Shown piece after piece: positions 8,084 through 28,828 of a DNA stretch of 41,896 nucleotides. Position 1 is the first letter of the stretch; every line of letters begins with the position of its first letter. Source of the stretch: Bacilli bacterium (GTDB lineage Bacteria; Bacillota_I; Bacilli_A; RF39; UBA660); NCBI GenBank assembly GCA_017886705.1, contig JAGHJJ010000085.1, positions 1-41,896 on the forward strand, written 5' to 3'. The notes beneath the pieces were generated by a model, which ran no database searches, was not told where the DNA came from, and saw nothing but the letters and a program-made list of their open reading frames with translations. Position numbers and translations under genes: made by a program.

Positions 8084-8091
8084 ATGGGGAG

Positions 8092-8116
8092 AAAACTATC
8101 TTTTAAAGATAGTTTT
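8092..8116 (+). terminator. Rho-independent terminator
   Basis: AAAACTATCTTT-T-AAAGATAGTTTT hairpin after the adhesin 1 stop. Confidence 0.7.
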
Positions 8117-8203
8117 TGATTATAAGGGAAGGAAAGTAAAATTTTAAAAAGTAAGTAAGATTAATTATATGAGTAAGTAATTTTTGTTTTTTCCTTTATC
8201 TCA

Positions 8204-8232
8204 TTTACTTGCTTTTTTTATTATGCTATACT
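8204..8232 (+). promoter_or_regulatory. SigA-type promoter for adhesin 2
   Basis: TTTACT-17 bp-TATACT with TG extended -10. Confidence 0.55.
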
Positions 8233-8275
8233 GTACATTATAGAGTAAGTTAATAAGGTATGGTGAATTTGATAT

Positions 8276-11200: not shown

Positions 11201-11752
11201 GATACTTATGAGGTAGGGGAAGAAGTATTCACATCTAATGCTCTAGAAAATGGTAATTACTTATTAAAACAGACAAAAGTTCCAGAAGGAATGGTATTAA
11301 ACTCTAATTTATATTCTTTCACAATTTCTGATACGCAAACTTCAGATGTAGTATATTTTGCCAATGATTATATTCGTGTAAATTTTGAAAAAAAAGAAAT
11401 GATAGGTGGTAAAAATCTAGCAGGGGCTCATTTCATTTTACGGAATGAACAAGGTGATATTGTAGAAGAGTGGACATCGACTGATACTGCAAAAACAATT
11501 GAAAAATTAACTCCAGGTCAATACACATTAAGTGAAGTACAAGCACCGGATGGTTATGTTTTAAATAAATCAGCACTTACATTCGAAGTAGCGAAGACAG
11601 GGGATATTCAAGTTGTTACCATGTTTGATGCTTTAGAAGTAAAAGTTCCTAACACATCACAAAATTCTTTATTATATCTATTTATAGGTACAATTACTAT
11701 CATGACAGGTTTAAGTATCTTTGGATATACTTACTATAAAAAGAAAGCCTAA
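8276..11752 (+). CDS. Sortase-anchored surface adhesin: thioester domain plus 9 SpaA/CnaB-type repeats (paralog of 5642..8083)
   Basis: YCLEKEKEWY, TQVAIW, MQK; nine ~86-aa repeats; VPNTS-TM-KKKA. Confidence 0.88.
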   Translation: MLQKVKEWWFYDKKANKILIVFSAFLIAFSIFLGCAIGSSMAANVPKKLITTREDFESGATVGLITGIYLSGKFLATDTTTGTQYVMYCLEKEKEWYVDSEMTNNNESLDAGYAYIIKNGYPNKEFTKNSDYDFYLTQVAIWWYQDRIAGVDDTEDGILTAAQKQEIKTGQYSAIFVPLVDKAVDITNNYRKIEPKFSVSTSSFKLDSTGKYLETSYISVTANVDFTSYSVALDMAGAQVINEQGLTTQGSIPSNQKFKIRIPVSSLSSSDLDLKVSVILDYEVDTAYQFHPPADQQDMQKAVPSLVMAMSKQYTASTTVRIPTGSITIEKVNATTDAPLAGAKIELVRNSDNQVIETFTTTTTAKTISGLLPGKYTICEIDAPAGFVASSNSPSVTLNTTNMNQTVRLENTPLDFKIRKIDEETKQPVAGAEIVILNEDSEEVFRFTSTSGYTDIPALEVGKYTAVEEKAPSGYYLNKTPVSFEIKDTDTSKSIDVPNKKNEIEILKTDADTGSPLAGAKLRVVNTANNETVEEWTTTTTAHVIRGLAAGNYRVEEVSAPSGYVLNTNSMSFTVSNTQTEKITITFPNTKSQIMISKVNEAGELIAGAKLAIYNSSNQKVQEFTSKTTPTIIDKLAAGNYTLREEQAPSGYTLNTEPVPFEVTDSAINLQISMKNVQNEILIGKVDADTKAYISGAELRLVSESGAEIRKWTSTNSLYSIKGLAAGTYYLEETKAPTGYIRNTERIEIVVNENTTTVTYTMENQSISVRIGKIDKDTKQLVAGATLELLDENRDVISTWQTSTDYQLFNDLKEGKYYVREKTAPAGYILNNETVEFTIDATHTSFVVELENEQTTVKLGKIDAQTGDYLPGATLQLSREDGSMDPITFVSEDKATEFKGLASGSYVLEEISAPAGYIETNSKITFEVDSTGKAKNISLKSDYITVSVQDKKLQIDTKGVAGYEFELLNANGELLDTYEVGEEVFTSNALENGNYLLKQTKVPEGMVLNSNLYSFTISDTQTSDVVYFANDYIRVNFEKKEMIGGKNLAGAHFILRNEQGDIVEEWTSTDTAKTIEKLTPGQYTLSEVQAPDGYVLNKSALTFEVAKTGDIQVVTMFDALEVKVPNTSQNSLLYLFIGTITIMTGLSIFGYTYYKKKA

Positions 11753-14091: not shown

Positions 14092-14127
14092 TTGACAAAT
14101 ATATTAGTTATTAATATAATGTTAATA
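14092..14127 (+). promoter_or_regulatory. Consensus SigA promoter overlapped by palindromic operator (probable NrtR box)
   Basis: TTGACA-17-TATAAT; GTTATTAA-TATAATG-TTAATAAC palindrome centred on the -10. Confidence 0.85.
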
Positions 14128-14163
14128 ACAAGTGAAGAAACTTGTGATTTTAATACTATATGA

Positions 14164-14182
14164 TATTAATAAAATATTAATA
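14164..14182 (+). promoter_or_regulatory. Second operator TATTAA-N7-TTAATA before pncA RBS
   Basis: TATTAA TAAAATA TTAATA directly before AGAGGAG. Confidence 0.7.
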
Positions 14183-14849: not shown

Positions 14850-16322
14850 ATGTATAATAAAACATTAATGACAGATTTTTATGAGTTAACAATGGCCGGG
14901 ACATATTTCAATGAAGGAAAGAAAGAGGAGCAAGTATATTTTGATATTTTCTTTCGTAAGAATCCTTTTGAAGGTGGATACACAATCAGTGGAGGATTAG
15001 ATGAGACTATAAATTATATTAAAAACTTCTATTTTGGAAAAGAAGAGTTAGATTACTTAAGAAAATTAGGAAAATTCAACGAAGATTTTTTAAATTATTT
15101 AAGTACTTTAAAATTTGAAGGAGATATTTATGCTGTACCTGATGGAACAGTAGTATTTCCAAATGAACCAGTATTAACAGTAAAAGCCGATGCCGTAACA
15201 GCTCAAATATTAGAAACAGCATTACTTGCTAATTTCAATCATGGATCTTTAGTAACAACAGCAGCAAAAAGAATTACGAATGAAGCCAAAGGTATTCCAG
15301 TAATGGAGTTTGGAGCAAGACGTGCTAGAGGAATTGATTCCGCAATAGAAGCAAGTAAATGTGCATATATCGGAGGATGTGTAGGAACATCTAATACTTA
15401 TGCCGGTATGAAATATGATATCCCCGTCATGGGAACTATGGCTCACTCATTGGTAACAGAAAGTGAAGATGAATATGATGCCTTTTTAAAATATGCAAAA
15501 AGTAATCCTGATAACTGTGTCTTCCTAGTTGATACATACGATACTTTACATAGTGGTATTCCTAATGCCATCAGAGTCGCAAATGAATACCTAACACCAA
15601 ATGGATATCCCTTTAAAGGAATACGAATTGATAGTGGAGACTTAGCATATTTATCAAAAGAAGCAAGAAAAATGTTAGATGAAGCAGGATATAAGGATAC
15701 AGGAATTTGTTTATCAAACGGATTAAATGAGTATACGATCAGAGATTTAATTACCCAAGGAGCAAAGATTAATTCGATTGGTGCCGGAGATAACATTGCT
15801 GCTCCTAAAGAAAGAGTAGGAGGAGTTTATAAACTAGTAGCAGTAGAGGAAAATAAGGAAGCTAAACCAAGAATTAAAGTAAGTAATGACAGTATTAAAA
15901 CAATTAATCCTGGATATAAAAAGGTATATCGCTTCTATGACAAAGATACTGGATATGCGCTAGGAGATGTTATTACATTAAATGAAGAAGAAATTAGTAA
16001 AAATCACTATACACTAGTTCATCCAGTAGAGACATGGAAGAGGACAGAATTAGAAAATTATAATGTAAGAAGTCTATTAGTACCAGTATTTAAAAATGGA
16101 GAATTAGTATACCAAGATCCAAGTTTACAAGAAAAACAAGAATATTGTGAAAAAGAATTTGAAACACTATATCCAGAAGTAACAAGAATTGATAAGCCTC
16201 ATGAATATTACGTAGACTTATCAGACAAATTAAGAACCCTAAAACAAGAACTAATTGAATTTCATCAAAATGAAATAGCTGAAAAAGGAAAGGAATACGC
16301 CAAATGTGCAAAGAGAAGTTAG
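14850..16322 (+). CDS. pncB: Nicotinate phosphoribosyltransferase
   Basis: TDFYELTM, FFRKNPF, EFGARRA, GTMAHS, LVDTYD, RIDSGDL, GGVYKLV. Confidence 0.95.
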   Translation: MYNKTLMTDFYELTMAGTYFNEGKKEEQVYFDIFFRKNPFEGGYTISGGLDETINYIKNFYFGKEELDYLRKLGKFNEDFLNYLSTLKFEGDIYAVPDGTVVFPNEPVLTVKADAVTAQILETALLANFNHGSLVTTAAKRITNEAKGIPVMEFGARRARGIDSAIEASKCAYIGGCVGTSNTYAGMKYDIPVMGTMAHSLVTESEDEYDAFLKYAKSNPDNCVFLVDTYDTLHSGIPNAIRVANEYLTPNGYPFKGIRIDSGDLAYLSKEARKMLDEAGYKDTGICLSNGLNEYTIRDLITQGAKINSIGAGDNIAAPKERVGGVYKLVAVEENKEAKPRIKVSNDSIKTINPGYKKVYRFYDKDTGYALGDVITLNEEEISKNHYTLVHPVETWKRTELENYNVRSLLVPVFKNGELVYQDPSLQEKQEYCEKEFETLYPEVTRIDKPHEYYVDLSDKLRTLKQELIEFHQNEIAEKGKEYAKCAKRS

Positions 16323-16939
16323 AAGAATTAAATGACTATATAAAGGAATTACAGACTATTACAAAAGAAAGAAAAAAGGAAGAATTTATATATCAAGGAA
16401 CAGAACCCGTTCAAAGAAAAGGATTCATTAATGTAGAAAGTTATAATTGTAAACTACAAAATGGAATAATAATACCAAGAGAAAAAATAGTAAAAGGTAC
16501 AAACGATGGTAATGCCGCAATTATCTTACCAATCACAAAAGAAGGGAATACTTTATTAGTAGTACAACCAAGAGTATTTACAAAAGAAACAGTATGTGTA
16601 GAGTTGCCTGCTGGATATTTAGAAAAAGATGAAGATCCATTAACTGCAGGAAAAAGAGAATTAGAAGAAGAAACAGGATACGTTCCAGAAGAAATGAGAC
16701 TACTAGCTAGCTTTTATCAAGATCAAGGATGTAGTGCAGCTTATAATCATAGTATGTTAGCACTAGGTTGTAAAAAAATAAAAGAACAAAACTTAGATAA
16801 AGATGAAATCATTCGTTATTTTGAATGTAGTTTTGACGAAGCTGTAGAATTAGTAGAACGTGGATATATCACAGATATTCAATCTCAATTTACAATAGAA
16901 AAAGCAAAGTCATACGTATATCAAAAAATAAAAAAGTAA
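16304..16939 (+). CDS. Nudix hydrolase, ADP-ribose pyrophosphatase (NudF-like)
   Basis: ELPAG...E.P..A.KRELEEETGY Nudix box; LDKDE motif; NAD-cluster context. Confidence 0.85.
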   Translation: MCKEKLEELNDYIKELQTITKERKKEEFIYQGTEPVQRKGFINVESYNCKLQNGIIIPREKIVKGTNDGNAAIILPITKEGNTLLVVQPRVFTKETVCVELPAGYLEKDEDPLTAGKRELEEETGYVPEEMRLLASFYQDQGCSAAYNHSMLALGCKKIKEQNLDKDEIIRYFECSFDEAVELVERGYITDIQSQFTIEKAKSYVYQKIKK

Positions 16940-16997
16940 CATGAAATTTAGTAAAAAAGAAAAAATTTTGATACACTATAAAAAAGGAGTGATACAA

Positions 16998-18935
16998 GTG
17001 AAAGAATATGGATTTATTAGAGTAGGTGCCATAGTAAATAAATTGTCATTAGCTAATCCTATGAAAAATGCAGAAGAAATCATTAAGGAGATAAAAAAGG
17101 CAGTAACAAAAGGAGTATCGATTGTTACAACACCAGAACTTTCTTTAACAGGCTATACTTGTGGTGATTTATTCTTACAAGATCAATTGTTAATTGATAG
17201 CGAAAAATCCTTACAAAAGGTATTAGAGGAGACTAAAAAACTAGATATTATTTCCATAATAGGAATGCCAATTAGACATGATAATCAGCTGTTTAATTGT
17301 GCTGTAGTAATAGAAAAAGGGAAAATATTAGGTGTCATATCAAAGACTTATATTCCTAATTATCAAGAGTTTTATGAAGCTAGATGGTTTTCTTCTAGTA
17401 AAGAGTTAAAAACAAATGAGGTAGAATTATTAGGTCAATTAGTTCCTATCTCTACTAATTTATTATTTCAAGATAAAACACGAAAAGAGATTACTTTTGC
17501 TATTGATATTTGTGAAGATTTATGGACAGTAACTCCTCCAAGTGATTCTCATGCTTTACATGGCGCAACAATTATCTTTAATTTATCTAGTAGTAATGAA
17601 CTTATTGGAAAACAAGAGTATCGTAAGAGTTTAGTTGCTATGCAATCAGCTAAAACAATTTCTGCTTATATTTATGCATCTAGTGGAGTAATGGAGTCAA
17701 CCTCAGATTTAGTATTTGGTGGTGCTAGTATGATTTATGAAAATGGTTCTTGTTTAGCAGAAAATAAACGCTTTGAACTAGAAAGTAATCTAATTACTGC
17801 AGATATTGATGTTTTAAAATTAGCAAATGATCGTAGAAAAAATAAAAGTTTTATGCATATGGCACCAAGTCAAGAGTACAACGTAATAAAAATAGAGGTA
17901 GTAGATACCATAAAAGAATTACAAAGAGATTATAAAGAATATCCCTTTGTTCCAGCAAATGAACAAGAAAGAAATAACAGATGTGAAGAAATTATAGAAA
18001 TCCAGTCCAGTGCTCTAGCAAGAAGATTAATTCAACTTGGCAATCCAAAATGTGTCATAGGAATGTCTGGAGGACTAGACTCAACTCTTGCTTATCTTGT
18101 TATTGTAAAAGCTTTTGAAAAATTAAATAGAGATACAAAAGATATTATTGGTATTACGATGCCAGGATTTGGAACTACTGGTAGAACTTATCAGAATGCT
18201 ATAGATTTAGTAAAAGAGTATGGAGCAACACTAAAAGAAATTAGTATTAAAGATGCTTCTATTCTACATATGAAAGATATTGGCCTACCAGAAACGGATA
18301 GAAGTGTTACTTATGAAAATATTCAAGCTAGAGAACGTACTCAGATATTGATGGATGTTGCTAATATGGAAGGGGGATTAGTCATTGGTACTGGGGATTT
18401 ATCAGAACTAGCTTTGGGTTGGTGTACTTATAATGGGGATCATATGAGTATGTATGCAGTTAATACTTCTATTCCTAAGACTTTAGTTCGTTATTTAGTT
18501 GGTTGGGTAGCTGATAGGGCTGAAGGAAAGAAAAAAGAAGTTCTAAAAGATATACTAGATACACCAATTTCTCCAGAATTATTACCACCGGACGAAGCAG
18601 GAAATATTTTACAAAAAACGGAATCTAGTATCGGACCATATGTATTACATGACTTCTTTCTTTATCATTTCTTAAGATATGGAGCAACACCTAAAAAGAT
18701 ATATGTTCTAGCAAAATATACTTTTAAAAATAGTTTTACTAAGGAAGAGATAAAAAAATGGTTAAAAGTATTTATTAGACGTTTCTTTACTCAGCAATTT
18801 AAGAGAAACTGTATTCCTGATGGAGTAAAAGTAGGTAGTATTAGCTTATCTCCAAGAGGTGATTTGCGTATGCCAAGTGATGCTAGTTATGAGGCTTGGT
18901 TAAAAGAATTAGATGAGATAAAAGAAGAGGATTGA
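16998..18935 (+). CDS. nadE: Glutamine-dependent NAD+ synthetase
   Basis: Nitrilase domain (PELSLTGY, K..IPNY.EFYE.RWF, ICEDLW) plus synthetase domain (SGGLDST, ENIQARER, GTGDLSE, QQFKR). Start at GTG after AGGAG. Confidence 0.95.
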   Translation: MKEYGFIRVGAIVNKLSLANPMKNAEEIIKEIKKAVTKGVSIVTTPELSLTGYTCGDLFLQDQLLIDSEKSLQKVLEETKKLDIISIIGMPIRHDNQLFNCAVVIEKGKILGVISKTYIPNYQEFYEARWFSSSKELKTNEVELLGQLVPISTNLLFQDKTRKEITFAIDICEDLWTVTPPSDSHALHGATIIFNLSSSNELIGKQEYRKSLVAMQSAKTISAYIYASSGVMESTSDLVFGGASMIYENGSCLAENKRFELESNLITADIDVLKLANDRRKNKSFMHMAPSQEYNVIKIEVVDTIKELQRDYKEYPFVPANEQERNNRCEEIIEIQSSALARRLIQLGNPKCVIGMSGGLDSTLAYLVIVKAFEKLNRDTKDIIGITMPGFGTTGRTYQNAIDLVKEYGATLKEISIKDASILHMKDIGLPETDRSVTYENIQARERTQILMDVANMEGGLVIGTGDLSELALGWCTYNGDHMSMYAVNTSIPKTLVRYLVGWVADRAEGKKKEVLKDILDTPISPELLPPDEAGNILQKTESSIGPYVLHDFFLYHFLRYGATPKKIYVLAKYTFKNSFTKEEIKKWLKVFIRRFFTQQFKRNCIPDGVKVGSISLSPRGDLRMPSDASYEAWLKELDEIKEED

Positions 18936-18980: not shown

Positions 18981-19481
18981 ATGAAGCAGTTAATAGAATT
19001 TGAAAATGGAGAAGTAAAAGATGCTAAGCTTACTTCCATGAGAGTACGTGATATTTTTGATGATTGTTTATTTAAAGAGGAAGAATTAGAAGAAGGAAAT
19101 CCTACAAAAGAATTTAATGTTGTAGAAGGCGTGATGATACAAGCTGTTTTTAATACGGAAAGACTAAATCAACATAAGCTAGAAATTGATGAAATGATTG
19201 ATGAGATTGCTAATATTGATAAAGGGCCACACTTTTTAAATATGTGTACTAGAAAAGATGGTAGTTTGTGGACTGGTGAACATTTTGTGGTAGATCAATT
19301 AATGGTTTTAGGGCTAGCTACGGAAAAATTAAAAGTACCATTAGATATTCCCAAGAAAGAATGGGGAGATTTCTTTCCATATGGAATGCCCTTTGTAATA
19401 AAGGACCAGCAGAAAACTAGTGTACCAGTAATAGGTGAAAATCCAAAAAACTATAAGACCGTGATGAAATTAATAAAGTAA
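18981..19481 (+). CDS. Conserved hypothetical protein (FLNxC..DG..WTG.H...QL..LG motif; family I associate with phages/MGEs)
   Basis: RBS GGAGGG; recognisable motif pattern, function unknown. Confidence 0.7.
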   Translation: MKQLIEFENGEVKDAKLTSMRVRDIFDDCLFKEEELEEGNPTKEFNVVEGVMIQAVFNTERLNQHKLEIDEMIDEIANIDKGPHFLNMCTRKDGSLWTGEHFVVDQLMVLGLATEKLKVPLDIPKKEWGDFFPYGMPFVIKDQQKTSVPVIGENPKNYKTVMKLIK

Positions 19482-19524
19482 AAAACAGTATAGAGGAGCA
19501 ATCCTCTTAAATTTAAATATATGA

Positions 19525-19543
19525 TATTAATAAAATGTTAATA
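19525..19543 (+). promoter_or_regulatory. Operator copy before radical SAM gene
   Basis: TATTAA TAAAATG TTAATA directly before AGGAGG. Confidence 0.75.
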
Positions 19544-19555
19544 AGGAGGATAAAT

Positions 19556-20608
19556 ATGAAAATAGTAAAGAACAAATTCGGGGAAGGAATACTTTACCAA
19601 GAAGAAGATTTAAAAGGAAAAATTTATGCAACAAGTGCAGCTTGTATGTCTGTGTGGAGTGATATGTTATCTTTTGCAAATAAATATAAAGATAGGTTTG
19701 TAAGTGAAATAGGGAATGCTGATAGTATCGTTGTATTAGGTTGTCAAGTAACAGATTTAGCAGTATTAAATGATCTAAATGTTGCAAACAAATTGCATGA
19801 AGAAACAGGAAAAGATATTTTCATGGGAGGATGTCTTGCTCAAAGAATGGATATACCATTACCAGAATATATCAAAAGATTAGATGTAGTTAGAGTAATA
19901 GGACAAGAATTAGATGACAGAAGTTTAGTTCATTATGAAAAACCCTTCTGGGTACCAGAGTTTGAAGAAAGTAAAGATAATTTAAAAGAAGGTAATCTAT
20001 TTAGAAATTATTATCCATTAAAGATTGGTGCAGGTTGCCATGGAAAGTGTAAATATTGTACCATTCGTCATACTAGAGGAGAAGGGTATGAAATGGTACC
20101 AGAAGAGCAAATTGAAGAATTTTTAAATCATGAACATGTGGTGTTAACATCTGATAGTCCTACTGTATCTCAAGTAAAAGCCTGGTGTAGGATTGCCAAA
20201 GAATGTAATAAGGAAATATCTATTAGAAATATTGAGCCACAGAACTTAATACAATGTAGAGAAGAACTATTAGAGTTAGCAGATAACCACTTATTAGATA
20301 TTGTTCACTGTCCCGTACAAAGTTTTGATTCAGAACTATTAAAAGCAATGAATAGAAGTGTTACTGCAACAAATCAAGCAGTAGACTTATTATATGAATT
20401 AAGAGAAAAAGAAGTTATTACGGCTACGAATATTATTATCGATTATATGACAGATGGAAAACTATATCCAAATCATGACATTGAGAAATTACAAGAAAAC
20501 TTTGATTATTATTCTTGGAATCCTTACTTTGATGGTAATTTTGATATGGATAGAGCAAAGCAACGATTTAAAAAATATATCACAAATGAAAAAGTAACTC
20601 AAAAATAA
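19556..20608 (+). CDS. Methylthiotransferase-like radical SAM protein (UPF0004-like N-domain plus radical SAM core, no TRAM)
   Basis: Three N-terminal Cys (AAC, LGCQV, GGCLAQ) as in MiaB/RimO/MtaB; KIGAGCHGKCKYCTIRHTRG CxxxCxxC; HCPVQS...LKAMNR. Confidence 0.8.
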   Translation: MKIVKNKFGEGILYQEEDLKGKIYATSAACMSVWSDMLSFANKYKDRFVSEIGNADSIVVLGCQVTDLAVLNDLNVANKLHEETGKDIFMGGCLAQRMDIPLPEYIKRLDVVRVIGQELDDRSLVHYEKPFWVPEFEESKDNLKEGNLFRNYYPLKIGAGCHGKCKYCTIRHTRGEGYEMVPEEQIEEFLNHEHVVLTSDSPTVSQVKAWCRIAKECNKEISIRNIEPQNLIQCREELLELADNHLLDIVHCPVQSFDSELLKAMNRSVTATNQAVDLLYELREKEVITATNIIIDYMTDGKLYPNHDIEKLQENFDYYSWNPYFDGNFDMDRAKQRFKKYITNEKVTQK

Positions 20609-20612
20609 TGAG

Positions 20613-21125
20613 TTACTTTTTCATTTGAATTTGATAAATTTTTACTTTTTCTACATGGTCTATTTGGTATAGGGAAGTATTCCTAGGAACCAGACCATCA
20701 TAGATTAGAATTCCTCCGTTTTTAATAGCAATACGTTGTGAGTAAATATTATCAGGTAGGGTAGATATTAAAATTCCTTCTTTCATAGCATAAGTATTTT
20801 GTTGCAATAGTTCTTTTAAAAGAGAAAGACTTTGTGTACCATATCCCTGATGTTGAAAAGAATCATAAACCGTATAATCTACATTTCCACCATAGAAAAA
20901 CTCATCATATAGTGTTGCTTGAAAACCAATTTCTCCGACCAATTCTAAAGTATCACATTTTACAACATCAAAAGAAAGAAAAGCAGAAGTAGCAATATTG
21001 GTATCAAAACTATTAGATAGTAATCCAATTTTATCATTGGTAATTACTGGTTGATATTCTTCTTTTGTAACCGTAGTAGGTCTACTAATAATGGTTTTAT
21101 TGATATAGTCATAAAAGTTTTGCAT
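20613..21125 (-). CDS. GNAT family N-acetyltransferase
   Basis: GNVDYTV...QHQGYGT acetyl-CoA motif A and N..SQRIA.KNGG motif. Confidence 0.85.
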   Translation of the reverse strand: MQNFYDYINKTIISRPTTVTKEEYQPVITNDKIGLLSNSFDTNIATSAFLSFDVVKCDTLELVGEIGFQATLYDEFFYGGNVDYTVYDSFQHQGYGTQSLSLLKELLQQNTYAMKEGILISTLPDNIYSQRIAIKNGGILIYDGLVPRNTSLYQIDHVEKVKIYQIQMKK

Positions 21126-21163
21126 ATCACATCTTCTTTCAAATAGGGTGTTCTTATTGTAAT

Positions 21164-22150
21164 TTATTTTTTTCTAAATTGCAAAGGCTTTTCTTCTTTT
21201 TGTATACTTAAGAATCTTTGATAATCATCCTCTGATATTTCTATAAGCAAAGGATGGTTAGGAGAATCTAGTTTTTCTACCAAATCATAGCCAAAAGAGA
21301 AAAAACTAGAAACACTTTCAAAACTTTTTTGATATTGCTGATTTACAAACCCATCTGGTTTAAAACAAATAGCAAACCTACTATTACCATCTTTTGTACT
21401 TTTACCCAGGTAGACTTCTTTAGTATTTTGCGACTGATTTGCATCTTGCGTTGTGTTAGAGGTAGATAAGTTTATTAAAGAAAAAGGAATCTCTTCTCTT
21501 TTTTTCTGATAAGCTTTTAATATTTTAGAGTCAACAGTTCCAATAGGTAAAAACTCTTCTTTAAAACTTGCTTCTTGTGTTTTTAGATTGATACTTTTGA
21601 TAACTCTAGAAATTTCTTCTCCATCAGGTAAAAAAACAGAAGAAAGATTAGATAGGAACGGTACGTTATCACGATACCATAGCCAGGAAAGATTTACAAA
21701 TACTAAAGATTTATTATCACTCAATTTCATGGTTAAGTCATAAGTGGAAAGAGAATCTGGATCTTTATGTTCTTTATCAAAATAACAAAAATCGACTTCC
21801 TGGTGAAAAGATAATGATTTCTTGTTGTCTAATGTTACCTTCATGATGCGTTTACTCATACATCGTCCTTTGGTATCATTTTCAACATATTTTAACAAGC
21901 TAGTAACACTATCATCTGTCTTTTTTATATCAAATTTCATATCTAGTTCAATATCATGACCGTTCTTTGTTTTACTATACTGTTGTGCTAATTCGATATT
22001 ATTACTAATTTCAGCAGTACGAAATAAAAACATTTCATAATAATAATTATGAACAAATTCCTTAGGTATACGCCAGTATAATTTTTTAAAGTCGTTGGAA
22101 AAAGCTAACATCTTATCTATTTTTACTTGTTGATATGACGTAAAACTCAT
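21164..22150 (-). CDS. Orphan hypothetical protein
   Basis: 328-aa ORF with RBS AAGGTG; no recognised motif. Confidence 0.7.
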   Translation of the reverse strand: MSFTSYQQVKIDKMLAFSNDFKKLYWRIPKEFVHNYYYEMFLFRTAEISNNIELAQQYSKTKNGHDIELDMKFDIKKTDDSVTSLLKYVENDTKGRCMSKRIMKVTLDNKKSLSFHQEVDFCYFDKEHKDPDSLSTYDLTMKLSDNKSLVFVNLSWLWYRDNVPFLSNLSSVFLPDGEEISRVIKSINLKTQEASFKEEFLPIGTVDSKILKAYQKKREEIPFSLINLSTSNTTQDANQSQNTKEVYLGKSTKDGNSRFAICFKPDGFVNQQYQKSFESVSSFFSFGYDLVEKLDSPNHPLLIEISEDDYQRFLSIQKEEKPLQFRKK

Positions 22151-22209
22151 ATTTTCACCTTCCTTTATAAAGTATCATAATATAATAAAGAAATTTTTGC
22201 AAAAAATAG

Positions 22210-22245
22210 TTGACAAATTTTATAGTTATTAATATAATGTTAATA
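22210..22245 (+). promoter_or_regulatory. Consensus SigA promoter overlapped by palindromic operator
   Basis: TTGACA-17-TATAAT; TAGTTATTAATATAATGTTAATAACA identical to the pncA promoter segment. Confidence 0.85.
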
Positions 22246-22280
22246 ACAGATAACAAATCTGATATTTTTGTAAAAATTGT

Positions 22281-22299
22281 TATTAACAAAAATATAATA
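22281..22299 (+). promoter_or_regulatory. Second operator copy before 22317 RBS
   Basis: TATTAA CAAAAAT ATAATA before GAAAGGAG. Confidence 0.6.
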
Positions 22300-22316
22300 A
22301 GAAAGGAGAAAGTAGT

Positions 22317-22721
22317 ATGGAAATGACAATTACAAAAGATAAAGTAGAGAGAATTTTAACGGATTATTATCGCACTAGAGAAGATATTAAAGGAACGGTA
22401 AAAATGAAAACAAAAAAAGAACAAGTTGGATACTACACAAGTGAGCATACTGCAGCAGTTACAACGATAGAACTTTCTGGAACTACAACACTTTTTGGTA
22501 CAGAAATACCAGTAAAAAGAGTGATACCGTTCGAAGAGTATGAAGGCATTTTTAAAAGCTTATTAGAAGAACAAGGTTATGAAGTAAATAAATTATGGAT
22601 TGATAATGGTGTAAATACAGAATGGACAGGTTGGGGACCAATGGAGTCTAGAGAGGAAAAGCCATATTGTAATGGAATAACAATAGATGTAGATAAACAA
22701 GTAAAAGAATACAGAAAATAA
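22317..22721 (+). CDS. Hypothetical protein heading the prs-nadD transcript
   Basis: RBS AAGGAG; 134 aa; no recognised motif. Confidence 0.75.
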   Translation: MEMTITKDKVERILTDYYRTREDIKGTVKMKTKKEQVGYYTSEHTAAVTTIELSGTTTLFGTEIPVKRVIPFEEYEGIFKSLLEEQGYEVNKLWIDNGVNTEWTGWGPMESREEKPYCNGITIDVDKQVKEYRK

Positions 22722-22741: not shown

Positions 22742-22760
22742 TATTAACAATATATTAATA
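22742..22760 (+). promoter_or_regulatory. Operator copy before prs
   Basis: TATTAA CAATATA TTAATA before GAGAGGTG. Confidence 0.75.
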
Positions 22761-22775
22761 AGAGAGGTGAGAAAT

Positions 22776-23849
22776 ATGAATAATTTAAAGATAATTGTTT
22801 TAGATAACATGAGAGAAGTAGGAAATAATGTTAATTTAAAATTAAAAAAATTAAGAGGTGAAAATAGGGATTACTTATTAAAGATTACAGAAAGTAGATT
22901 TTCTAATGGGGAAGGTAAAGTAAAAATTGAGGATACTGTAAGAGAGAAAGATATTTATTTACTAGCAGATGTAGGAAATTATGGAATTACTTATAATATG
23001 CATGGGTTTACACATCATATGGCACCAGATGAACATTTTCAAGATATCAAAAGAACCATTTCAGCTATCTCTGGATATTCAGAAAAAGTAACTGTAATTA
23101 TGCCACTTTTATATCAATCAAGACAACATAAAAGGAAGGGAAGAGAGTCCGCAGACTGTGCTTTAGCACTACAAGAATTAGAACGATTAGGAGTAGACCA
23201 TATTATTACTTTTGATGCTCATGATCCTACAATTTCTAATGCCATTCCTAATTTACCATTTGAAAATATCTATCCAACCAATACCATTTTAGAGGATTTA
23301 TTAAAGAATGAAGATTTAAATGATATTTTAGTAATTAGTCCAGATTTAGGAGCGACAGAACGTGCTAGATACTTTGCTGAAATGTTAGATACTAATGTCG
23401 GAGCTTTTTATAAAAGACGAGATTTAACAAAAGTAGTGAATGGTAAAAATCCTATTATAGAACATACTTACATGGGACCAAGTGTAAAAGGGTGTGATGT
23501 TTTAGTAGTAGATGACATGATAGCAAGTGGTACTTCTATGTTGGAAGTAGGAGAAAAGTTAAAAAAAGATGGTGCTAATAAAGTGTATTTTATTGCAACT
23601 TTCTCCCTATTTACAGAAGGAATAGAAGAATTTGATAAAGCGTATCAAAATAATTATTTCGATAAACTATACACAACAAACCTATCTTACATTCCAGAAG
23701 AATATAGAAATAAAGAATGGCATCATACAGTAGATTGTTCCGAGAGTATTGCAGAGATTATCAATACTTTACATAATAAAGAATCGTTAAGACCGTTATT
23801 TAATGGAAAAGAGAAAATATTAACATTACGAAAGGAGAAAAAATTATGA
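22776..23849 (+). CDS. prs: Ribose-phosphate pyrophosphokinase (PRPP synthetase)
   Basis: RFSNGEG, SRQH.R.GRES, TFDAH, SPDLGA..RA, VVDDMIASGTS. Confidence 0.93.
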   Translation: MNNLKIIVLDNMREVGNNVNLKLKKLRGENRDYLLKITESRFSNGEGKVKIEDTVREKDIYLLADVGNYGITYNMHGFTHHMAPDEHFQDIKRTISAISGYSEKVTVIMPLLYQSRQHKRKGRESADCALALQELERLGVDHIITFDAHDPTISNAIPNLPFENIYPTNTILEDLLKNEDLNDILVISPDLGATERARYFAEMLDTNVGAFYKRRDLTKVVNGKNPIIEHTYMGPSVKGCDVLVVDDMIASGTSMLEVGEKLKKDGANKVYFIATFSLFTEGIEEFDKAYQNNYFDKLYTTNLSYIPEEYRNKEWHHTVDCSESIAEIINTLHNKESLRPLFNGKEKILTLRKEKKL

Positions 23850-24475
23850 AAATAGGAATATTCGGAGGAAGTTTTAATCCCCCTCATAAGATGCATAAAA
23901 ATATAGCCAAAGAATTAATTAAACACGGTTATGTCGATAAAGTTATCTTTGTACCTACAGGAACAAAATATGAATATAAAAACAACCTAGAATCAAATGC
24001 TACTAGGTATATGATGTTAACACTTATGATAGAAAATGAAAAAGATTTATCCCTAAGTAAGTACGAATTACAAGATAGGCCAGTCTACACATATGAGACT
24101 CTAGATCATTTTAAAAGAAGATATCCAGAAGATGACATTTACTTTATTTGTGGAACAGATAATTTAAGTTATATAGATCAATGGAAAAGAGGAGACTATA
24201 TCTTAAAAAACTATAAAATTTTAGTTATTAAAAGAACAACCGACGAATTAGAACCATTATTAGAAAAATATAAAAATTATCAAAAAAATATAATCGTCAC
24301 TTCTATCAAAGAAGAAACATTATCTTCTACTTATATTAGAGAAGAGATAAAGAAGAAAAAACAAGGTAATATCAAAAAATATCTAGATAAAAAAGTATAT
24401 CAATATATAAAAGAAAATCATTTATATGAAGAAAAGACGGAAAGAAAGTGTTTCTATGCTATTAAAAGTTATTAA
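23846..24475 (+). CDS. nadD: Nicotinate-nucleotide adenylyltransferase
   Basis: GIFGGSFNPPHKMH, YTYETL, FICGTD..W, LSSTYIR, YIKENHLY. Confidence 0.93.
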   Translation: MKIGIFGGSFNPPHKMHKNIAKELIKHGYVDKVIFVPTGTKYEYKNNLESNATRYMMLTLMIENEKDLSLSKYELQDRPVYTYETLDHFKRRYPEDDIYFICGTDNLSYIDQWKRGDYILKNYKILVIKRTTDELEPLLEKYKNYQKNIIVTSIKEETLSSTYIREEIKKKKQGNIKKYLDKKVYQYIKENHLYEEKTERKCFYAIKSY

Positions 24476-24582: not shown

Positions 24583-25332
24583 ATGTTAGGATCAATTATT
24601 GGTCATATTCTAGGAGAAAATTATGGAAGAGAAGGTAGAAGTGTTAAAGATACAAAGGATATTGTTAATTTATTATCTGGTGATAACTTAATCCAAAACA
24701 AAAAGAAAATATCTGAAATTTGTGCTATTTACGATGCTATTATCAATGGAGATAGTAACTATAGTGATTATTTAGAAAAAAGTGATAGTAAAAGTGATGA
24801 TAGTATAGCAGCAATGCGTGTTACTCCTGTTGGTTTTTGCTTTGATCAATTTGAACAAATAGAAGATGAAGCAAAAGAGGCAACGATTCCTACACATGAT
24901 ACAGATGATGCAAAAAAAGCTAGTAAAGCCGTTGCACTTAGTATTTATTTGTTAAGGATTGGCATGCCAAAAAGACGATTAGAAGATTATATGAAACTAA
25001 AATATTATTCTATGAATTATGAACTTGAGGAGTTACAAGAAGATTCTTTTTCTAAAAATGATAAAGAGACAGTACCATATGCTATGGTTTGCTTTTTTAA
25101 ATCAAATTCATTTGAAAATGCGATTGCAAACGCCTTATCGATAGGCGGAGATAGTAGTACTATCACTAGTATTACAGCATCCCTTGCCGAAGCTTATTAT
25201 GGAATTCCAGAAAAAGTAGTAGAAAAATCAAGAGAAATATTGGACGATGGTACTTATAATTTATTAAAAGATAAATATTTTAGTTCCAAAGTGTACAGAA
25301 TAAGAACAGATAATAGAGGACAATATGATTAA
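24583..25332 (+). CDS. ADP-ribosylglycohydrolase (ARH/DraG) family protein, catalytically degenerate
   Basis: MLGSIIG.I.G, AAMRVTP, PTH, ETVP.A, SIGGDSST..I..SLAEAYYGIP; several Mg-binding Asp residues lost. Confidence 0.85.
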   Translation: MLGSIIGHILGENYGREGRSVKDTKDIVNLLSGDNLIQNKKKISEICAIYDAIINGDSNYSDYLEKSDSKSDDSIAAMRVTPVGFCFDQFEQIEDEAKEATIPTHDTDDAKKASKAVALSIYLLRIGMPKRRLEDYMKLKYYSMNYELEELQEDSFSKNDKETVPYAMVCFFKSNSFENAIANALSIGGDSSTITSITASLAEAYYGIPEKVVEKSREILDDGTYNLLKDKYFSSKVYRIRTDNRGQYD

Positions 25333-25894
25333 AAAAATAGCTATTAATCCAGACTGGTTTTACCATCGTATACAATTAGAAAAATTAGAAGATATTCTAA
25401 ATACTGGAGCTATTCTTTCTAGAAGACAACAGGGATATCGGAAAATGGATCATACTACTTGGAATGGACTAGATTATATTTCTTTAGCAAAAAGAGAAGA
25501 ATCGGTATGGAATAGTTCCTATAGAAGATTTATTTCTTCCTCCTATGCTTTTATTTTAGCTGGAATTCCAGTAAATAATACGAAGTATATAGAAGATTAT
25601 AATTATGAATTATGGCGTAAATTATCGAAATTGTTTCCCAGTCAGCGCTTCTCACCTTATGAAGATGAGTATCAAGTAAAAGATAAAATAAGTCTAGATA
25701 CTGTAATTGGAATTAAAATACCAGATAAAGAAAAAGACTTTTCTTCGGTGGAGTTTTATAAAGAAAAAGATTGTGCTATTGATATTGTTTTAAATAAGTT
25801 AGGAAGTAATTTAGAAAGTGTTCCTTTTATTGATATTAATGAAGGATTACAAATAGATAGATGTGATATAAAAAAATATATGAAAAATAGATAA
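25325..25894 (+). CDS. Hypothetical protein, putative ADP-ribosyltransferase fold
   Basis: FYH....L..IL.TG.ILSR, YISL strand and EDEYQV...I....IGI pattern resemble DarT/ART-like folds; overlaps the ARH gene by 8 nt. Confidence 0.5.
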   Translation: MIKKIAINPDWFYHRIQLEKLEDILNTGAILSRRQQGYRKMDHTTWNGLDYISLAKREESVWNSSYRRFISSSYAFILAGIPVNNTKYIEDYNYELWRKLSKLFPSQRFSPYEDEYQVKDKISLDTVIGIKIPDKEKDFSSVEFYKEKDCAIDIVLNKLGSNLESVPFIDINEGLQIDRCDIKKYMKNR

Positions 25895-25905: not shown

Positions 25906-26382
25906 ATGGATTTTAAAGAAATTATACATATTTTACAAGAAAGAAGAAAAACAATTTCTACGATGGAGTCTTGTACTGGTGGTGGAGTTGCGAATGCCAT
26001 TACTAATTGTGAAGGCGCTAGTGAAATATTAAAGTTTAGTGCAGTAACGTATTCTAATGAATATAAAATTAAACAGGGCGTATCAAGTGAAGTAATTGAT
26101 AAATATACAGTCTATAGTATGGAAACAGCAGATGAGATGAGTAAAAAAATTACAGAGTATGCAAATAGTGATTATGGAGTAGGGATTACTGGACAATTAA
26201 ATAGACAAGATCCAGCCAATCCTGTAGGAGAGGATAATGTTGTCTACATTAGTATTTATGATAGAGAAAATAATAAGTACTATAGAGAAACCATGGAAGT
26301 TCATAAGGAAAGTAGAAAATTAAATAAAGATCATGTCATTGATAAAATCATTGAAATGTTGGAAACTATATTAAAAAAATGA
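25906..26382 (+). CDS. pncC: NMN deamidase (CinA C-terminal domain)
   Basis: ESCTGG, GAS, VTYSN..K, GITG motifs of stand-alone CinA/PncC. Confidence 0.85.
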   Translation: MDFKEIIHILQERRKTISTMESCTGGGVANAITNCEGASEILKFSAVTYSNEYKIKQGVSSEVIDKYTVYSMETADEMSKKITEYANSDYGVGITGQLNRQDPANPVGEDNVVYISIYDRENNKYYRETMEVHKESRKLNKDHVIDKIIEMLETILKK

Positions 26383-26405: not shown

Positions 26406-27155
26406 ATGAAAGAATCTACTTTAGCAAAAGTAAGAGAAGAGTATAAGAAAGTAGTAAATGAAACTAACCAGCTTTTGTCTTATAAACAAGAATTAAAATC
26501 TTTAGAACAGGATGAGAATGTAAAAAGATATCTAGAACTCCTAGAATTAGTAGATAGAGATTATGAAGCACCATCAATAGAGAAGATGATTGCTGCTGCT
26601 TATCTAAATGCCAATATAGAGAATAGTGATAGTAATCATATTATGGTATATGTCGGAACCTATCATAGAGATACTGATATGTATCGGGATAATGATACCA
26701 TAACACAAGATGATAGTAAGGCTAGTTATAAAGCATATTTAGATTTAGAAACACAAGCGGCTTATAATATTGCTATAGAAGAAGTAAGAGAATTCGAAAA
26801 AGAACACTTGACAATATATCTTCCAGTAGAAGGAGTTAGTCAAAACGATTATATGGCCAAATATTTTGAACTGCAAATATGGTTTCGTAAACAATTAATG
26901 ACACATTCTCAAAAAGAAGTGATAGGAAAATTACAAGAGAATATGGATATAAAATATCAAAAACTATCCTCAGCATGTCAAAACAATCCAACACTGCAAT
27001 TACAAGTTGGAAAACCTGCTAAACCAGTATCTTTTGACGTAGACCAATTTGTAACAACACATCCTGAGGCTGGTTTTTTAGAAGAGTTTTGTCTATCTCC
27101 TGAAAATAGAGCTAAAGTAAAACAATATAGAAATAAGCATAGTGAAAATCACTAG
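26406..27155 (+). CDS. Orphan hypothetical protein
   Basis: 249-aa ORF with RBS GAGGTG; N-terminal coiled coil. Confidence 0.7.
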   Translation: MKESTLAKVREEYKKVVNETNQLLSYKQELKSLEQDENVKRYLELLELVDRDYEAPSIEKMIAAAYLNANIENSDSNHIMVYVGTYHRDTDMYRDNDTITQDDSKASYKAYLDLETQAAYNIAIEEVREFEKEHLTIYLPVEGVSQNDYMAKYFELQIWFRKQLMTHSQKEVIGKLQENMDIKYQKLSSACQNNPTLQLQVGKPAKPVSFDVDQFVTTHPEAGFLEEFCLSPENRAKVKQYRNKHSENH

Positions 27156-27204
27156 CTTTTTTCTTGAATTATGTTATAATCAAAGTATAAATAAGAGGTG
27201 TGAT

Positions 27205-28035
27205 ATGAAAAAAGAATATAAAACTGAAGAAGAATTCTTAAAAGACTATGATCCAAAAGCTTTTGATCAATTATCTATGACATCAGATATCTTATTAATT
27301 AGTGTATCTGATCAAGAACAGACAAATTACCGTAAAACAAGTAAAAAAATGATGAGTATTCTACTAGTAAAAAGAGATGATTATCCCTATAAAGATAAAT
27401 GGTGCTTACCTGGAGGCTTCCTAAATCCTAAAACAGAAACATTAGAAGAGTGCGCTAAAAGAGTATTAAAGAGGGAAACCAATTTATCAAATATTTACTT
27501 AGAACAATTATATACCTATGATGCGATTGATAGAGACCCTAGAACCAGAGTAGTCTCTACTGCCTATATTGCTTTAATAGATAAAAATAAATTAACGGAA
27601 ATGATTAATCTTAATGCATCCTGGTTTGATATTGTTTTATTAGAAGAAAAAAATAATATTGTAGACATCACTTTAGATAATGGAAAAGACACCATTCAAC
27701 TTTCTATAAAGAAAGAACTACGTGAGAAAACAACCGATCGTTATCGTTTTATGGCAATAAAAAATGAAAGTTTAGCCTTTGATCATGCTCTGGTTATTCT
27801 AGCGGGAATTGAAAGAATAAGAAATAAAATTAATTATACTGATATTGTCTTTAATATGATGCCAGACTATTTTACTTTAGGAGAATTACAACAAGTCTAT
27901 GAAGTAATATTAAATAAAAAACTACTTGATCCTGCTTTCAGAAGAATTATTGCCAATAAAGTAGTAAAAACAAAGAAAATGAAAACTGGAGAAGGACATC
28001 GTCCATCGGCCTTATTTAAATATAAAGGAAAGTAA
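27205..28035 (+). CDS. nrtR: NrtR (Nudix-related transcriptional regulator, ADP-ribose sensing)
   Basis: W.LPGGF, degenerate Nudix box (RVLKRET), EQLYT...RDPR.RVVSTAY, LAFDH, FTL.ELQ.VYE, FRR, HRPS.LF wHTH. Confidence 0.9.
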   Translation: MKKEYKTEEEFLKDYDPKAFDQLSMTSDILLISVSDQEQTNYRKTSKKMMSILLVKRDDYPYKDKWCLPGGFLNPKTETLEECAKRVLKRETNLSNIYLEQLYTYDAIDRDPRTRVVSTAYIALIDKNKLTEMINLNASWFDIVLLEEKNNIVDITLDNGKDTIQLSIKKELREKTTDRYRFMAIKNESLAFDHALVILAGIERIRNKINYTDIVFNMMPDYFTLGELQQVYEVILNKKLLDPAFRRIIANKVVKTKKMKTGEGHRPSALFKYKGK

Positions 28036-28036
28036 T

Positions 28037-28828
28037 ATGAAGAGTGTTAAATTATTTGTAAATGATAATGAAACTTCTAAAAATGTTTCAAAAATAGTAA
28101 AAGAAAAACTAGAAAGTGCTAATTTTCAGGTAGTAGAAGATAATTATGACCTAGCTATTGCGATTGGTGGAGATGGTTCTTTCTTAAGAATGATAAAATC
28201 TTCAAACTTTAATGAAAATTGTCTCTATATTGGTATTAATGCCGGAACATTAGGCTTTGCGCAAGAAGTAAATGTAGAAGAGATTGATAAGTTTATCTTA
28301 GATTTAGAAAATAATAATTATAAAGTAGAAAATATTGGTATTCAAGAAATTGAAATTAAAACACCAGATACTATTTCTAAACAATTATCATTAAATGAAA
28401 TGATAGTAAGAGATATGGAATTAAATACTGCTAATCTAAAGGTTTTAGTAGAAGATGTGTTATTAGAAGATTTTGTAGGGGATGGACTGCTTCTAGCAAC
28501 TTCTTTTGGTTCTACTGCATATAACTTAAGTTTTGGAGGAAGTATTGTCTATAATACTTTTCATACATTGCAACTAACACCGATTGCTCCATTAAATAAT
28601 AAGTCCTATAGAAATTTATTAAACTCGGTAATCCTACCAGATAATAAAGAAATAGTAATAAAACCATGCAATCGTACCAAAAACTTATTAATTACTGTGG
28701 ATGGAGATAATAACTTCTATAAGAATGTAGATTATGTATCGTCTAAAGTAAGTGGTAGAGAAATTCAAATACTAAGAATGAAAGATTATAATTTTATTAA
28801 AAAGATTAATGATAAGTTTTTAAAATAG
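28037..28828 (+). CDS. nadK: NAD kinase
   Basis: GGDG, GTLGF, LNE, GDG...T..GSTAYNLS.GG. Confidence 0.92.
   Translation: MKSVKLFVNDNETSKNVSKIVKEKLESANFQVVEDNYDLAIAIGGDGSFLRMIKSSNFNENCLYIGINAGTLGFAQEVNVEEIDKFILDLENNNYKVENIGIQEIEIKTPDTISKQLSLNEMIVRDMELNTANLKVLVEDVLLEDFVGDGLLLATSFGSTAYNLSFGGSIVYNTFHTLQLTPIAPLNNKSYRNLLNSVILPDNKEIVIKPCNRTKNLLITVDGDNNFYKNVDYVSSKVSGREIQILRMKDYNFIKKINDKFLK

Follow-up and report, generated by a model that had tools for sequence, protein, structure and literature searches.

A TRAM-less methylthiotransferase-like radical SAM protein linked to NAD salvage genes in Bacilli and to a small, mostly viral protein family

We analyzed a 41,896-nt stretch of DNA, referred to below as the window, of a Bacilli bacterium (GTDB lineage Bacteria; Bacillota_I; Bacilli_A; RF39; UBA660). 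It covers positions 1 to 41,896 of contig JAGHJJ010000085.1 (NCBI GenBank assembly GCA_017886705.1), and it contains a gene, designated here rSAM, whose 350-aa product resembles the methylthiotransferases (MTTases) of the radical S-adenosylmethionine (SAM) type. The gene lies within an island of genes for the salvage of nicotinamide adenine dinucleotide (NAD). The contig is chromosomal, with SpoIIGA, sigma-E, thymidine kinase and lipid genes; the assembly, from a gut bacterium, is a 1.64-Mb metagenome-assembled genome (MAG) that is 77% complete. The order of the genes in the island is pncA, pncB, Nudix, nadE, unk166, rSAM, GNAT, unk328, unk134, prs and nadD (with GNAT and unk328 on the minus strand), followed by the genes of an ADP-ribosylglycohydrolase (ARH), unk189, a pncC-like protein, unk249, nrtR and NAD kinase (Table 1). 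The names nadE, nadD and pncC come from the reading of open reading frames (ORFs) and from homologous clusters, not from a family scan of the window proteins. The interval between nadE and prs (18981-22721) is a variable slot, in which unk166, rSAM, GNAT, unk328 and unk134 occur in differing combinations in operons of the same genus.

The start codon of rSAM (ATG 19556) encodes a Met that is shared by its relatives. A longer ORF begins at ATG 19535, within the operator described below, and its use as a start is unlikely. The protein matches the Pfam family Radical_SAM (E 1e-14, 55.5 bits, cut-off 29.5) and, below the cut-off of 27 bits, UPF0004 (E 1.5e-4, 22.1 bits). When a profile of the rSAM family was compared with MiaB chains (E 1.8e-11), the HxPxQS and MxR motifs lined up together with the Cys ligands: C30, C63 and C93 correspond to the three Cys residues of the MiaB auxiliary cluster, and C161, C165 and C168 to the CxxxCxxC motif of this enzyme. 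Among 103 family members drawn from the loci analyzed, C168 is retained in 102 and each of the other five Cys residues in all 103. The rSAM protein is thus an MTTase-superfamily scaffold with the complete ligand set for two [4Fe-4S] clusters, both of which, judging from the sequence, it very probably holds.

An AlphaFold2 (AF2) model of the protein, built on an alignment of 44 sequences, has a predicted local distance difference test (pLDDT) score of 95.2 and shows a C-terminal helix at residues 331-343. Residues 20-350 of the model superpose on residues 17-382 of MiaB and end before the TRAM domain of the latter; neither a Pfam TRAM match nor a TRAM barrel was found in the rSAM protein or its model, respectively. 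In a direct alignment the C-terminus of canonical MTTases is longer by about 95 residues. Close relatives of rSAM are all 343-351 aa in length; fused, longer forms were not found, although this search result is weak evidence. The direct alignment with canonical MTTases also revealed that in the protein AACMSV replaces LGCxKN, LGCQVTD replaces NTCxF, ATNIIIDY replaces TTxIVGFPGE and SWNPYFDG replaces F/YSxEEGT. The first-pass annotation of this DNA, which had described three UPF0004-type Cys ligands plus CxxxCxxC, a length of 350 aa without TRAM, and departures from the GCxxN/NTC and GFPGE motifs, is borne out on each of these points. The rSAM family cannot be told apart from canonical MTTases by isoelectric point or net charge, which are therefore uninformative on RNA binding.

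Several lines of evidence separate rSAM from the characterised MTTases. Its NCBIfam scores lie far below the respective cut-offs: 72.4 bits vs. 251 for TIGR00089 (MiaB/RimO family), 60.5 vs. 314.7 for TIGR01578, 45.7 vs. 356.95 for TIGR01125 (RimO), 42.7 vs. 357.05 for TIGR01579 (MtaB) and 40.5 vs. 355.3 for TIGR01574 (MiaB). The phylogeny against MTTases had been set beforehand as the test of whether rSAM nests within MtaB or MiaB. In the resulting tree (a quick search under a posterior mean site frequency model, with the root not inferred and canonical MTTases taken from the same class), 43 rows of the rSAM family split from 8 MiaB, 8 MtaB and 8 other MTTases with a Shimodaira-Hasegawa-like approximate likelihood ratio test (SH-aLRT) value of 100; the last eight are a third, untyped group, with motifs that look similar to those of RimO. 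The identity of rSAM with MiaB, MtaB or RimO was accordingly rejected (40-72 bits vs. cut-offs of 251-357; own clade), and the separate MTTase-like subfamily that had been proposed from the letters alone is a distinct TRAM-less clade. A bona fide MiaB (544 bits vs. a cut-off of 355) and a bona fide MtaB (437 bits vs. 357) are also encoded by the genome of the window, so rSAM does not take the place of either.

Among 1.84 billion representative sequences, an exhaustive HMMER search retrieved only 336 proteins with E<=1e-3, of which 58 reached E<=1e-30. Family members of full length have about 330-390 aa, and ordinary MTTases of 420-440 aa enter only near 1e-8. A profile search of 400 genomes of the same phylum recovered, besides the gene of the window, only canonical MTTases of 420-480 aa. 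Four remote relatives with 25-31% identity (P0172, P0185, P0194 and P0200) have the N-terminal Cys residues and lack CxxxCxxC. The 110-aa C-terminal extension of another relative, P0121, had no match among the sequences compared.

In structure comparisons the best match was MiaB (7mjx; Z 21.7, 282 residues, 3.3 Å), followed by an integrative model of MtaB (9a6d; Z 21.6) and RimO (Z 20.3), with the next unrelated enzyme at 16.4; the first rank in Foldseek was occupied by RimO 4jc0 (E 1e-13). With MiaB, which forms ms2i6A37 in tRNA, rSAM thus shares the three-Cys N-terminal cluster domain and the radical SAM core, but it lacks TRAM, has the GFPGE and YSxRxGT motifs replaced, forms a separate clade and occurs in the context of NAD operons. 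MtaB (ms2t6A37 in tRNA) has the same two-domain core and differs in its TRAM domain and its clade, and the genome has an MtaB of its own. RimO, which modifies Asp88 of ribosomal protein S12, demonstrates that the MTTase scaffold can accept a non-RNA substrate; rSAM differs from it by the lack of TRAM and of a ribosomal context.

Detailed inspection of the nucleotide sequence upstream of rSAM revealed a perfect 19-bp palindrome, TATTAA-N7-TTAATA, that directly abuts the AGGAGG of the ribosome-binding site (RBS), as had been noticed in the first-pass annotation. The window contains five perfect sites of this kind (0.09 expected), a number reached in 0 of 100 shuffled sequences. The whole 1.64-Mb assembly has nine, of which five lie in the NAD island within 8.7 kb; a reversed-pattern control over the same assembly gave two. 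The sites follow a repeated design: pncA and unk134 each have one site over the -10 element of a promoter and a second at the RBS, while prs and rSAM have a site abutting the RBS, and the leader of pncA is nearly identical to that of rSAM (atatgaTATTAATAAAATGTTAATAAGGAGG). These operator-plus-RBS modules favour ATG 14199 and ATG 22776 as the starts of pncA and prs, whose listed GTG starts (14132 and 22767, respectively) are probably wrong. Where a gap precedes the ortholog, a site with no more than one mismatch is located 30-37 bp upstream of the ATG (5/23 loci), and in those with the arrangement prs-nadD-rSAM tandem sites are located ahead of prs. The operator at the RBS, together with hairpins upstream of the gene and across its stop codon, makes rSAM look like a separate operator-controlled unit.

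The gene nrtR, encoding a protein with Nudix and NrtR_WHD domains, is located 6.5 kb downstream of rSAM. We infer that NrtR binds the palindrome; the operator shared with the NAD genes and the presence of nrtR in the genome would place rSAM in a candidate NrtR regulon, in agreement with the NAD-regulon control that had been apparent in the original reading of the sequence. The clustering of nrtR with pncA, pncB, nadD, nadE and prs resembles the NrtR regulons of Rodionov et al. 2008 (PMC2330246). In the sections of that paper covered here, NrtR sites are palindromes of 21 bp before operons, with a GT-N7-AC core in most groups, the effector is ADP-ribose, and no radical SAM member is mentioned.

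The linkage of rSAM to NAD genes is complete in its nearest relatives. In species-representative genomes the gene lies within the same NAD operon in 24/24 loci, following either nadE or nadD, and NAD genes were found beside it in 13/13 metagenome loci with at least 67% identity. In 16 of 18 loci its product is better conserved than any other protein of the operon, with a median identity of 72% compared with 42-64% for the others, and the ratio of nonsynonymous to synonymous substitution rates (dN/dS) is 0.07-0.21 (13 pairs). The gene is therefore under purifying selection, yet accessory in the genus.

Many relatives with 42-55% identity sit in NAD clusters of other composition, as determined by ORF clustering and scanning of the cluster representatives. 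In one arrangement, type ii, the order is (i) PncB-like, (ii) PncA, (iii) NH3-type NadE, (iv) rSAM, (v) NadD, sometimes fused to Nudix, (vi) PnuC and (vii) NadR-like. It was found in eight loci (L131, L133, L134, L136, L141, L144, L147 and L154), which are about 45% identical and have overlapping or abutting genes. Their flanks carry the small and large subunits of replication factor C (RFC), RuBisCO, PurF and an ARH, and these genes indicate that the contigs are cellular, probably archaeal. In the other arrangement, type iii, found in L092, L095, L099, L101 and L106, the order is PncA, a divergent Prs-like protein, a NadV-like phosphoribosyltransferase (PRTase; 451 bits vs. 405), NadE and rSAM; L099 shares phage genes with a contig of IMG/VR. 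Among 77 distant loci, a gene related to NAD lies on the same strand within 150 bp of rSAM in 13. In the family tree the NAD-linked loci occupy no fewer than four separate regions, and rooting on canonical MTTases places the Bacilli clade within phage and environmental diversity.

Some further features of these clusters were recorded. Five type ii loci (L131, L134, L141, L144 and L154) are complete NAD salvage operons with PnuC and a NadR-like gene, and the same five share a protein (cluster c4, about 270 aa, conserved) that has no Pfam or NCBIfam match; in L134 the gene of the RuBisCO large subunit is close by. In type iii clusters the Prs-like protein scores 70 bits and NadE is of the NH3 type, a composition that would fit a deamidated variant of the ADP-ribose-based reconstitution of NAD.

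The rSAM family is small and mostly viral. An alignment-based scan of the IMG/VR viral contigs (up to 276 kb) yielded 11 full-length relatives with 35-55% identity, whereas a single-protein scan of viral contigs found no relative; a metagenome scan with a narrower alignment (A2) yielded 80 loci. The ESM Atlas cluster containing the rSAM protein is 74% viral. Among the isolate phages of INPHARED, the protein of the window had only one match (26% identity, a 453-aa ORF, untyped), and two phage relatives used as queries had none; PHROGs contains no family for the protein.

Among the publications listed by literature searches on radical SAM enzymes, NAD salvage and phages and on TRAM-less methylthiotransferases, we found no description of the rSAM family, those on the latter subject being concerned with archaeal MTTases and tRNA sulfur modification; nor did we find any publication pairing NrtR with radical SAM, although the supplementary tables of the NrtR paper could list associated genes. 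Two phage systems of NAD metabolism resemble parts of the neighbourhoods described above. The composition of NARP1 resembles the Prs-like and NadV-like genes beside some phage-type relatives, which may correspond to Adps and Namat, and that of NARP3, in the portion of its paper used here, the PnuC and NadR-like genes beside some cellular relatives. Neither the NARP1 preprint nor the NARP3 paper mentions the terms radical, MiaB, methylthio, NadE or PncA in its main text, and rSAM is not a listed component of NARP1-3 there; the supplements could list associated genes. New here are the small size and mostly viral nature of the family, its embedding in NAD operons of two cellular lineages, and its viral contexts of tRNA and RNA-repair genes.

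The reading that we favour, tentatively and at somewhat less than an even chance, is that rSAM, as a radical enzyme of the MTTase type, has a nucleotide of the NAD pathway as its substrate. It is preferred because translational coupling of the gene to NadE/NadD is maintained in two unrelated cellular lineages and in some phages, because the bacteria appear to place it under the NAD regulator, and because the RNA- or protein-binding TRAM module is absent. As ADP-ribose is the published effector of NrtR, the expression of rSAM should rise when NAD breakdown is sensed. The radical SAM cluster would make the 5'-deoxyadenosyl radical and, by analogy with MiaB and RimO, the N-terminal cluster would present sulfide or methylthiolate. 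In the absence of TRAM, the substrate may be a nucleotide of NAD recycling. The most likely candidates are nicotinic acid adenine dinucleotide (NaAD) and NAD, the dinucleotides that NadE and NadD, as constant neighbours of rSAM, handle, and ADP-ribose, which would be thiolated or methylthiolated in the reaction. The function of the enzyme would be an accessory one that phages and cells exchange, not a core step of salvage. A more specific form of this proposal, which we consider unlikely, is that rSAM is the first small-molecule MTTase-type enzyme and (methyl)thiolates NaAD, NAD or ADP-ribose (e.g. at adenine C2 or in the pyridine ring), resulting in a modified dinucleotide pool or in the removal of breakdown products. 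Phages, and cells that have captured the gene, would use it against NAD-depleting immunity, as a fourth NAD counter-measure beside NARP1-3.

Several observations weigh against an NAD-related substrate. The window palindrome lacks the GT-N7-AC core given for most NrtR groups in the covered sections of PMC2330246. The gene was found in just 4 of 20 other genomes of the genus, compared with 15/20 for NrtR, so that the NAD operon exists without it (these MAGs are incomplete, and absence from them means "not found"); one of these genomes has unk166 and GNAT adjacent, with the position of rSAM between them empty. Given the variability of the nadE-prs slot, the insertion of rSAM may in part have been opportunistic. 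In one ortholog (L009), codon 117 is an in-frame TAA. The link to NAD genes, which the neighbourhood analysis upheld for the Bacilli-type loci and the archaeal-looking lineage, fails in the viral loci: NAD genes lie within 10 kb of rSAM in 0/11 loci from IMG/VR, and in the whole viral records NadE was found in 0/11, CTP_transf_like in 2/11 and a gene of the nicotinate phosphoribosyltransferase (NAPRTase) family in 1/5. A 72-kb viral contig rated as 100% complete has neither NadE nor CTP_transf_like (NAPRTase was not searched there). Among the 77 distant loci just 20 have an NAD-related gene and 17 a core salvage gene; when only the 45 loci with 8 kb or more of flanking sequence are counted, the numbers are 12 and 10. 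We know of no MTTase that acts on a small molecule; to our knowledge, all characterised enzymes of this type modify A37 of tRNA or ribosomal protein S12. Furthermore, in phage-like loci rSAM lies inside or beside tRNA arrays (6 of 47 loci scanned, 14 of which have a tRNA gene). It is located between tRNA genes in L117 (17 tRNAs and a transfer-messenger RNA), L138 (8), L137 (9) and L120 (4), and directly beside one in L071 and L130. RtcB is encoded near rSAM in four loci (L063, L069, L118 and L130), Thg1-like genes are nearby in L061, L098, L112 and L149, and an RNA ligase gene adjoins it in L070; a metallophosphoesterase gene is near it in four loci.

These neighbourhoods bear on the main rival explanation, in our estimate rather unlikely, namely that rSAM is a tRNA/RNA methylthiotransferase of phage origin that adds an ms2-type modification to adenosines, at A37 or elsewhere, in the tRNAs of phage or host. 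It would serve the supply or repair of phage tRNAs or counter-defence, its core or a partner would recognise the RNA, and its site in NAD operons would be secondary. The closest relatives of rSAM by sequence and fold, MiaB and MtaB, are tRNA enzymes, and the viral copies, mostly without NAD genes and in some cases near tRNA or RNA-repair genes, keep a tRNA substrate in contention. The tRNA arrays, however, also contain many unrelated small ORFs, and the adjacency of rSAM may simply reflect a variable accessory region. In addition to the lack of TRAM in the protein itself, a stand-alone TRAM gene and a MiaA gene were each found in 0 of the 11 viral records, the genome of the window already carries MiaB and MtaB, and the strict operonic embedding in operator-controlled NAD clusters of two unrelated cellular lineages is left unexplained. 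A RimO-like enzyme that (methyl)thiolates a residue of a protein partner, e.g. NadE, NadD or a phage or host factor, would account for the tight adjacency to NadE/NadD, often with overlapping genes, and for RimO being among the top structural matches. We nevertheless hold it to be very unlikely: RimO binds S12 through its TRAM domain, which rSAM does not have, no neighbour is common to all clusters, those of phage type lack a nicotinamide mononucleotide adenylyltransferase (NMNAT) gene, NAD genes are missing altogether from many phage loci, and the failure to find a fused form adds weak evidence in the same direction.

The gene might also be a mobile accessory element or phage moron with a role unrelated to NAD or tRNA, travelling with auxiliary or counter-defence modules of phages, which entered through the variable nadE-prs slot and acquired the local operator-plus-RBS module. 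Its patchy distribution in the genus, the companions with which it shares the slot (unk166, matching the phage family phrog_26039, GNAT, unk328 and unk134, in varied combinations), the nesting of the Bacilli clade in phage and environmental diversity and the viral share of the ESM Atlas cluster all fit this possibility. That adjacency to NAD genes arose or was retained in at least four parts of the tree, with different partners and translational coupling, and that rSAM exceeds the other proteins of the operon in conservation make it distinctly unlikely. PADLOC assigned no defence family to rSAM; applied to rSAM, two relatives and seven neighbours, it returned nothing except two marginal matches on the ARH. 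Finally, the substrate may be related to NAD and the chemistry other than (methyl)thiolation, with the N-terminal cluster serving substrate binding or electron transfer. The core motifs, unlike those of all characterised MTTases, and the remote relatives that keep the N-terminal Cys residues without CxxxCxxC are consistent with such an enzyme; but the full ligand set and architecture of an MTTase are retained, nothing positive points to another reaction, and we judge this very improbable.

The combination of a compact TRAM-less family under strong purifying selection, control by a putative NAD regulon, archaeal-looking NAD operons and spread in large uncultivated phages points to a reaction that has not been described so far. 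Should the substrate be a nucleotide of the NAD pathway, rSAM would represent new NAD chemistry and a new player in the contest of phages and hosts over NAD. If tRNA is the substrate, the MTTase core would work without TRAM and phages would carry their own ms2 enzyme. The family is amenable to testing, being small, soluble-looking and confidently modelled, with few candidate substrates.

Table 1. Features of the rSAM gene and of the NAD salvage island in the window
Feature	Position	Strand	Basis or remarks
rSAM, coding sequence of 350-aa TRAM-less MTTase-like radical SAM protein	19556-20608	+	ORF call, Pfam, NCBIfam, AF2 model, Foldseek
Shine-Dalgarno sequence AGGAGG, 6 nt before ATG 19556	19544-19549	+	Direct sequence reading
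N-terminal MTTase (UPF0004)-type domain, about residues 20-140	19613-19975	+	Pfam and alignment to MiaB Cys
Codons of auxiliary-cluster Cys C30, C63, C93	19643-19645, 19742-19744, 19832-19834	+	Aligned with MiaB
Radical SAM cluster motif C161-x3-C165-x2-C168 (CHGKCKYC)	20036-20059	+	Sequence, MiaB alignment, conservation
Family-specific C-terminal segment (FDYYSWNPYFDG...A..R helix) replacing linker and TRAM	20501-20584	+	Alignments, conservation, secondary structure of model
Terminator-like hairpin, 19-bp stem, across rSAM stop codon, between convergent rSAM and GNAT	20583-20627		
Short G+C hairpin between unk166 and operator	19492-19507		Scored on minus strand
Perfect 19-bp palindromic operator TATTAA-N7-TTAATA (TATTAATAAAATGTTAATA)	19525-19543		Abuts rSAM RBS; presumed NrtR site
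Two perfect operators before pncA	14109-14182		Second (14164) abuts RBS of ATG 14199
TTGACA-17-TATAAT promoter of pncA			First pncA operator overlaps its -10; promoter read by eye
Perfect TTGACA-17-TATAAT promoter	22210-22238		Overlapped by operator 22227-22245
Operator at RBS of unk134	22281-22299		1 mismatch
Operator before prs	22742-22760		Abuts RBS
pncA	14132 (listed GTG start)	+	Probable true start 14199
pncB	14850-16322	+	NAPRTase, 616 bits vs. cut-off 469
Nudix, ADP-ribose-type hydrolase	16304-16939	+	
nadE, Gln-dependent	16941-18935	+	ORF reading and homologous clusters
unk166, unknown protein	18981-19481	+	Matches phrog_26039; part of variable slot
GNAT	20613-21125	-	Variable slot
unk328	21164-22150	-	Variable slot
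unk134	22317-22721	+	Variable slot
prs	22776 (probable ATG start)-23849	+	459 bits vs. cut-off 327
nadD	23846-24475	+	ORF reading and homologous clusters
ADP-ribosylglycohydrolase	24583-25332	+	Pfam E 2.8e-17
unk189	25325-25894	+	
pncC-like	25906-26382	+	ORF reading
unk249	26406-27155	+	
nrtR	27142-28035	+	Nudix plus NrtR_WHD
NAD kinase	28037-28828	+	

Contigs from four metatranscriptome-labelled runs of one study span rSAM and link it with unk166 and with NadE; genes of the opposite strand are covered as well. These contigs are not counted as evidence of rSAM expression, since contigs cannot show transcription and DNA carry-over is possible. One contig of run X1 leads from position 22789 back to 19599 through 29 letters of other sequence, and several loose ends occur at 19616 and at 22764-22771; the junction and the loose ends suggest strain variants with a differently arranged variable slot. 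In other loci, unk134 is often located directly upstream of rSAM, prs or pncA. The ortholog L009 (10001-11047; 91% identical) comes from a MAG of Candidatus Faecimonas gallistercoris, and its TAA codon reflects either a recent pseudogene or an assembly error.

The ARH gene overlaps unk189, a conserved 189-aa ORF of unknown family that is also present in L007, L008, L011 and L177, by 8 nt. The idea, suggested by its motifs, that unk189 is ADP-ribosyltransferase- or Tpt1-like stays unsupported, and its AF2 model is unusable (pLDDT 32.3). Among the phage-like loci, L130 (9077-9149) and L138 (5869-5943) contain, beside or near rSAM, tRNAs with a CTA anticodon (labelled tRNA-Pyl by ARAGORN), which may act as amber suppressors in the stop-codon recoding of phages. 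In L069 an RtcB gene (6696-8327), located 1.7 kb upstream of the rSAM relative, is interrupted by an intein (Intein_splicing, E 1.5e-13). Outside the NAD island, positions 5642-11752 of the window encode two large surface proteins (813 and 1158 aa) with a thioester domain and 5-9 SpaA-type prealbumin-fold repeats, which look like adhesins or pilins.

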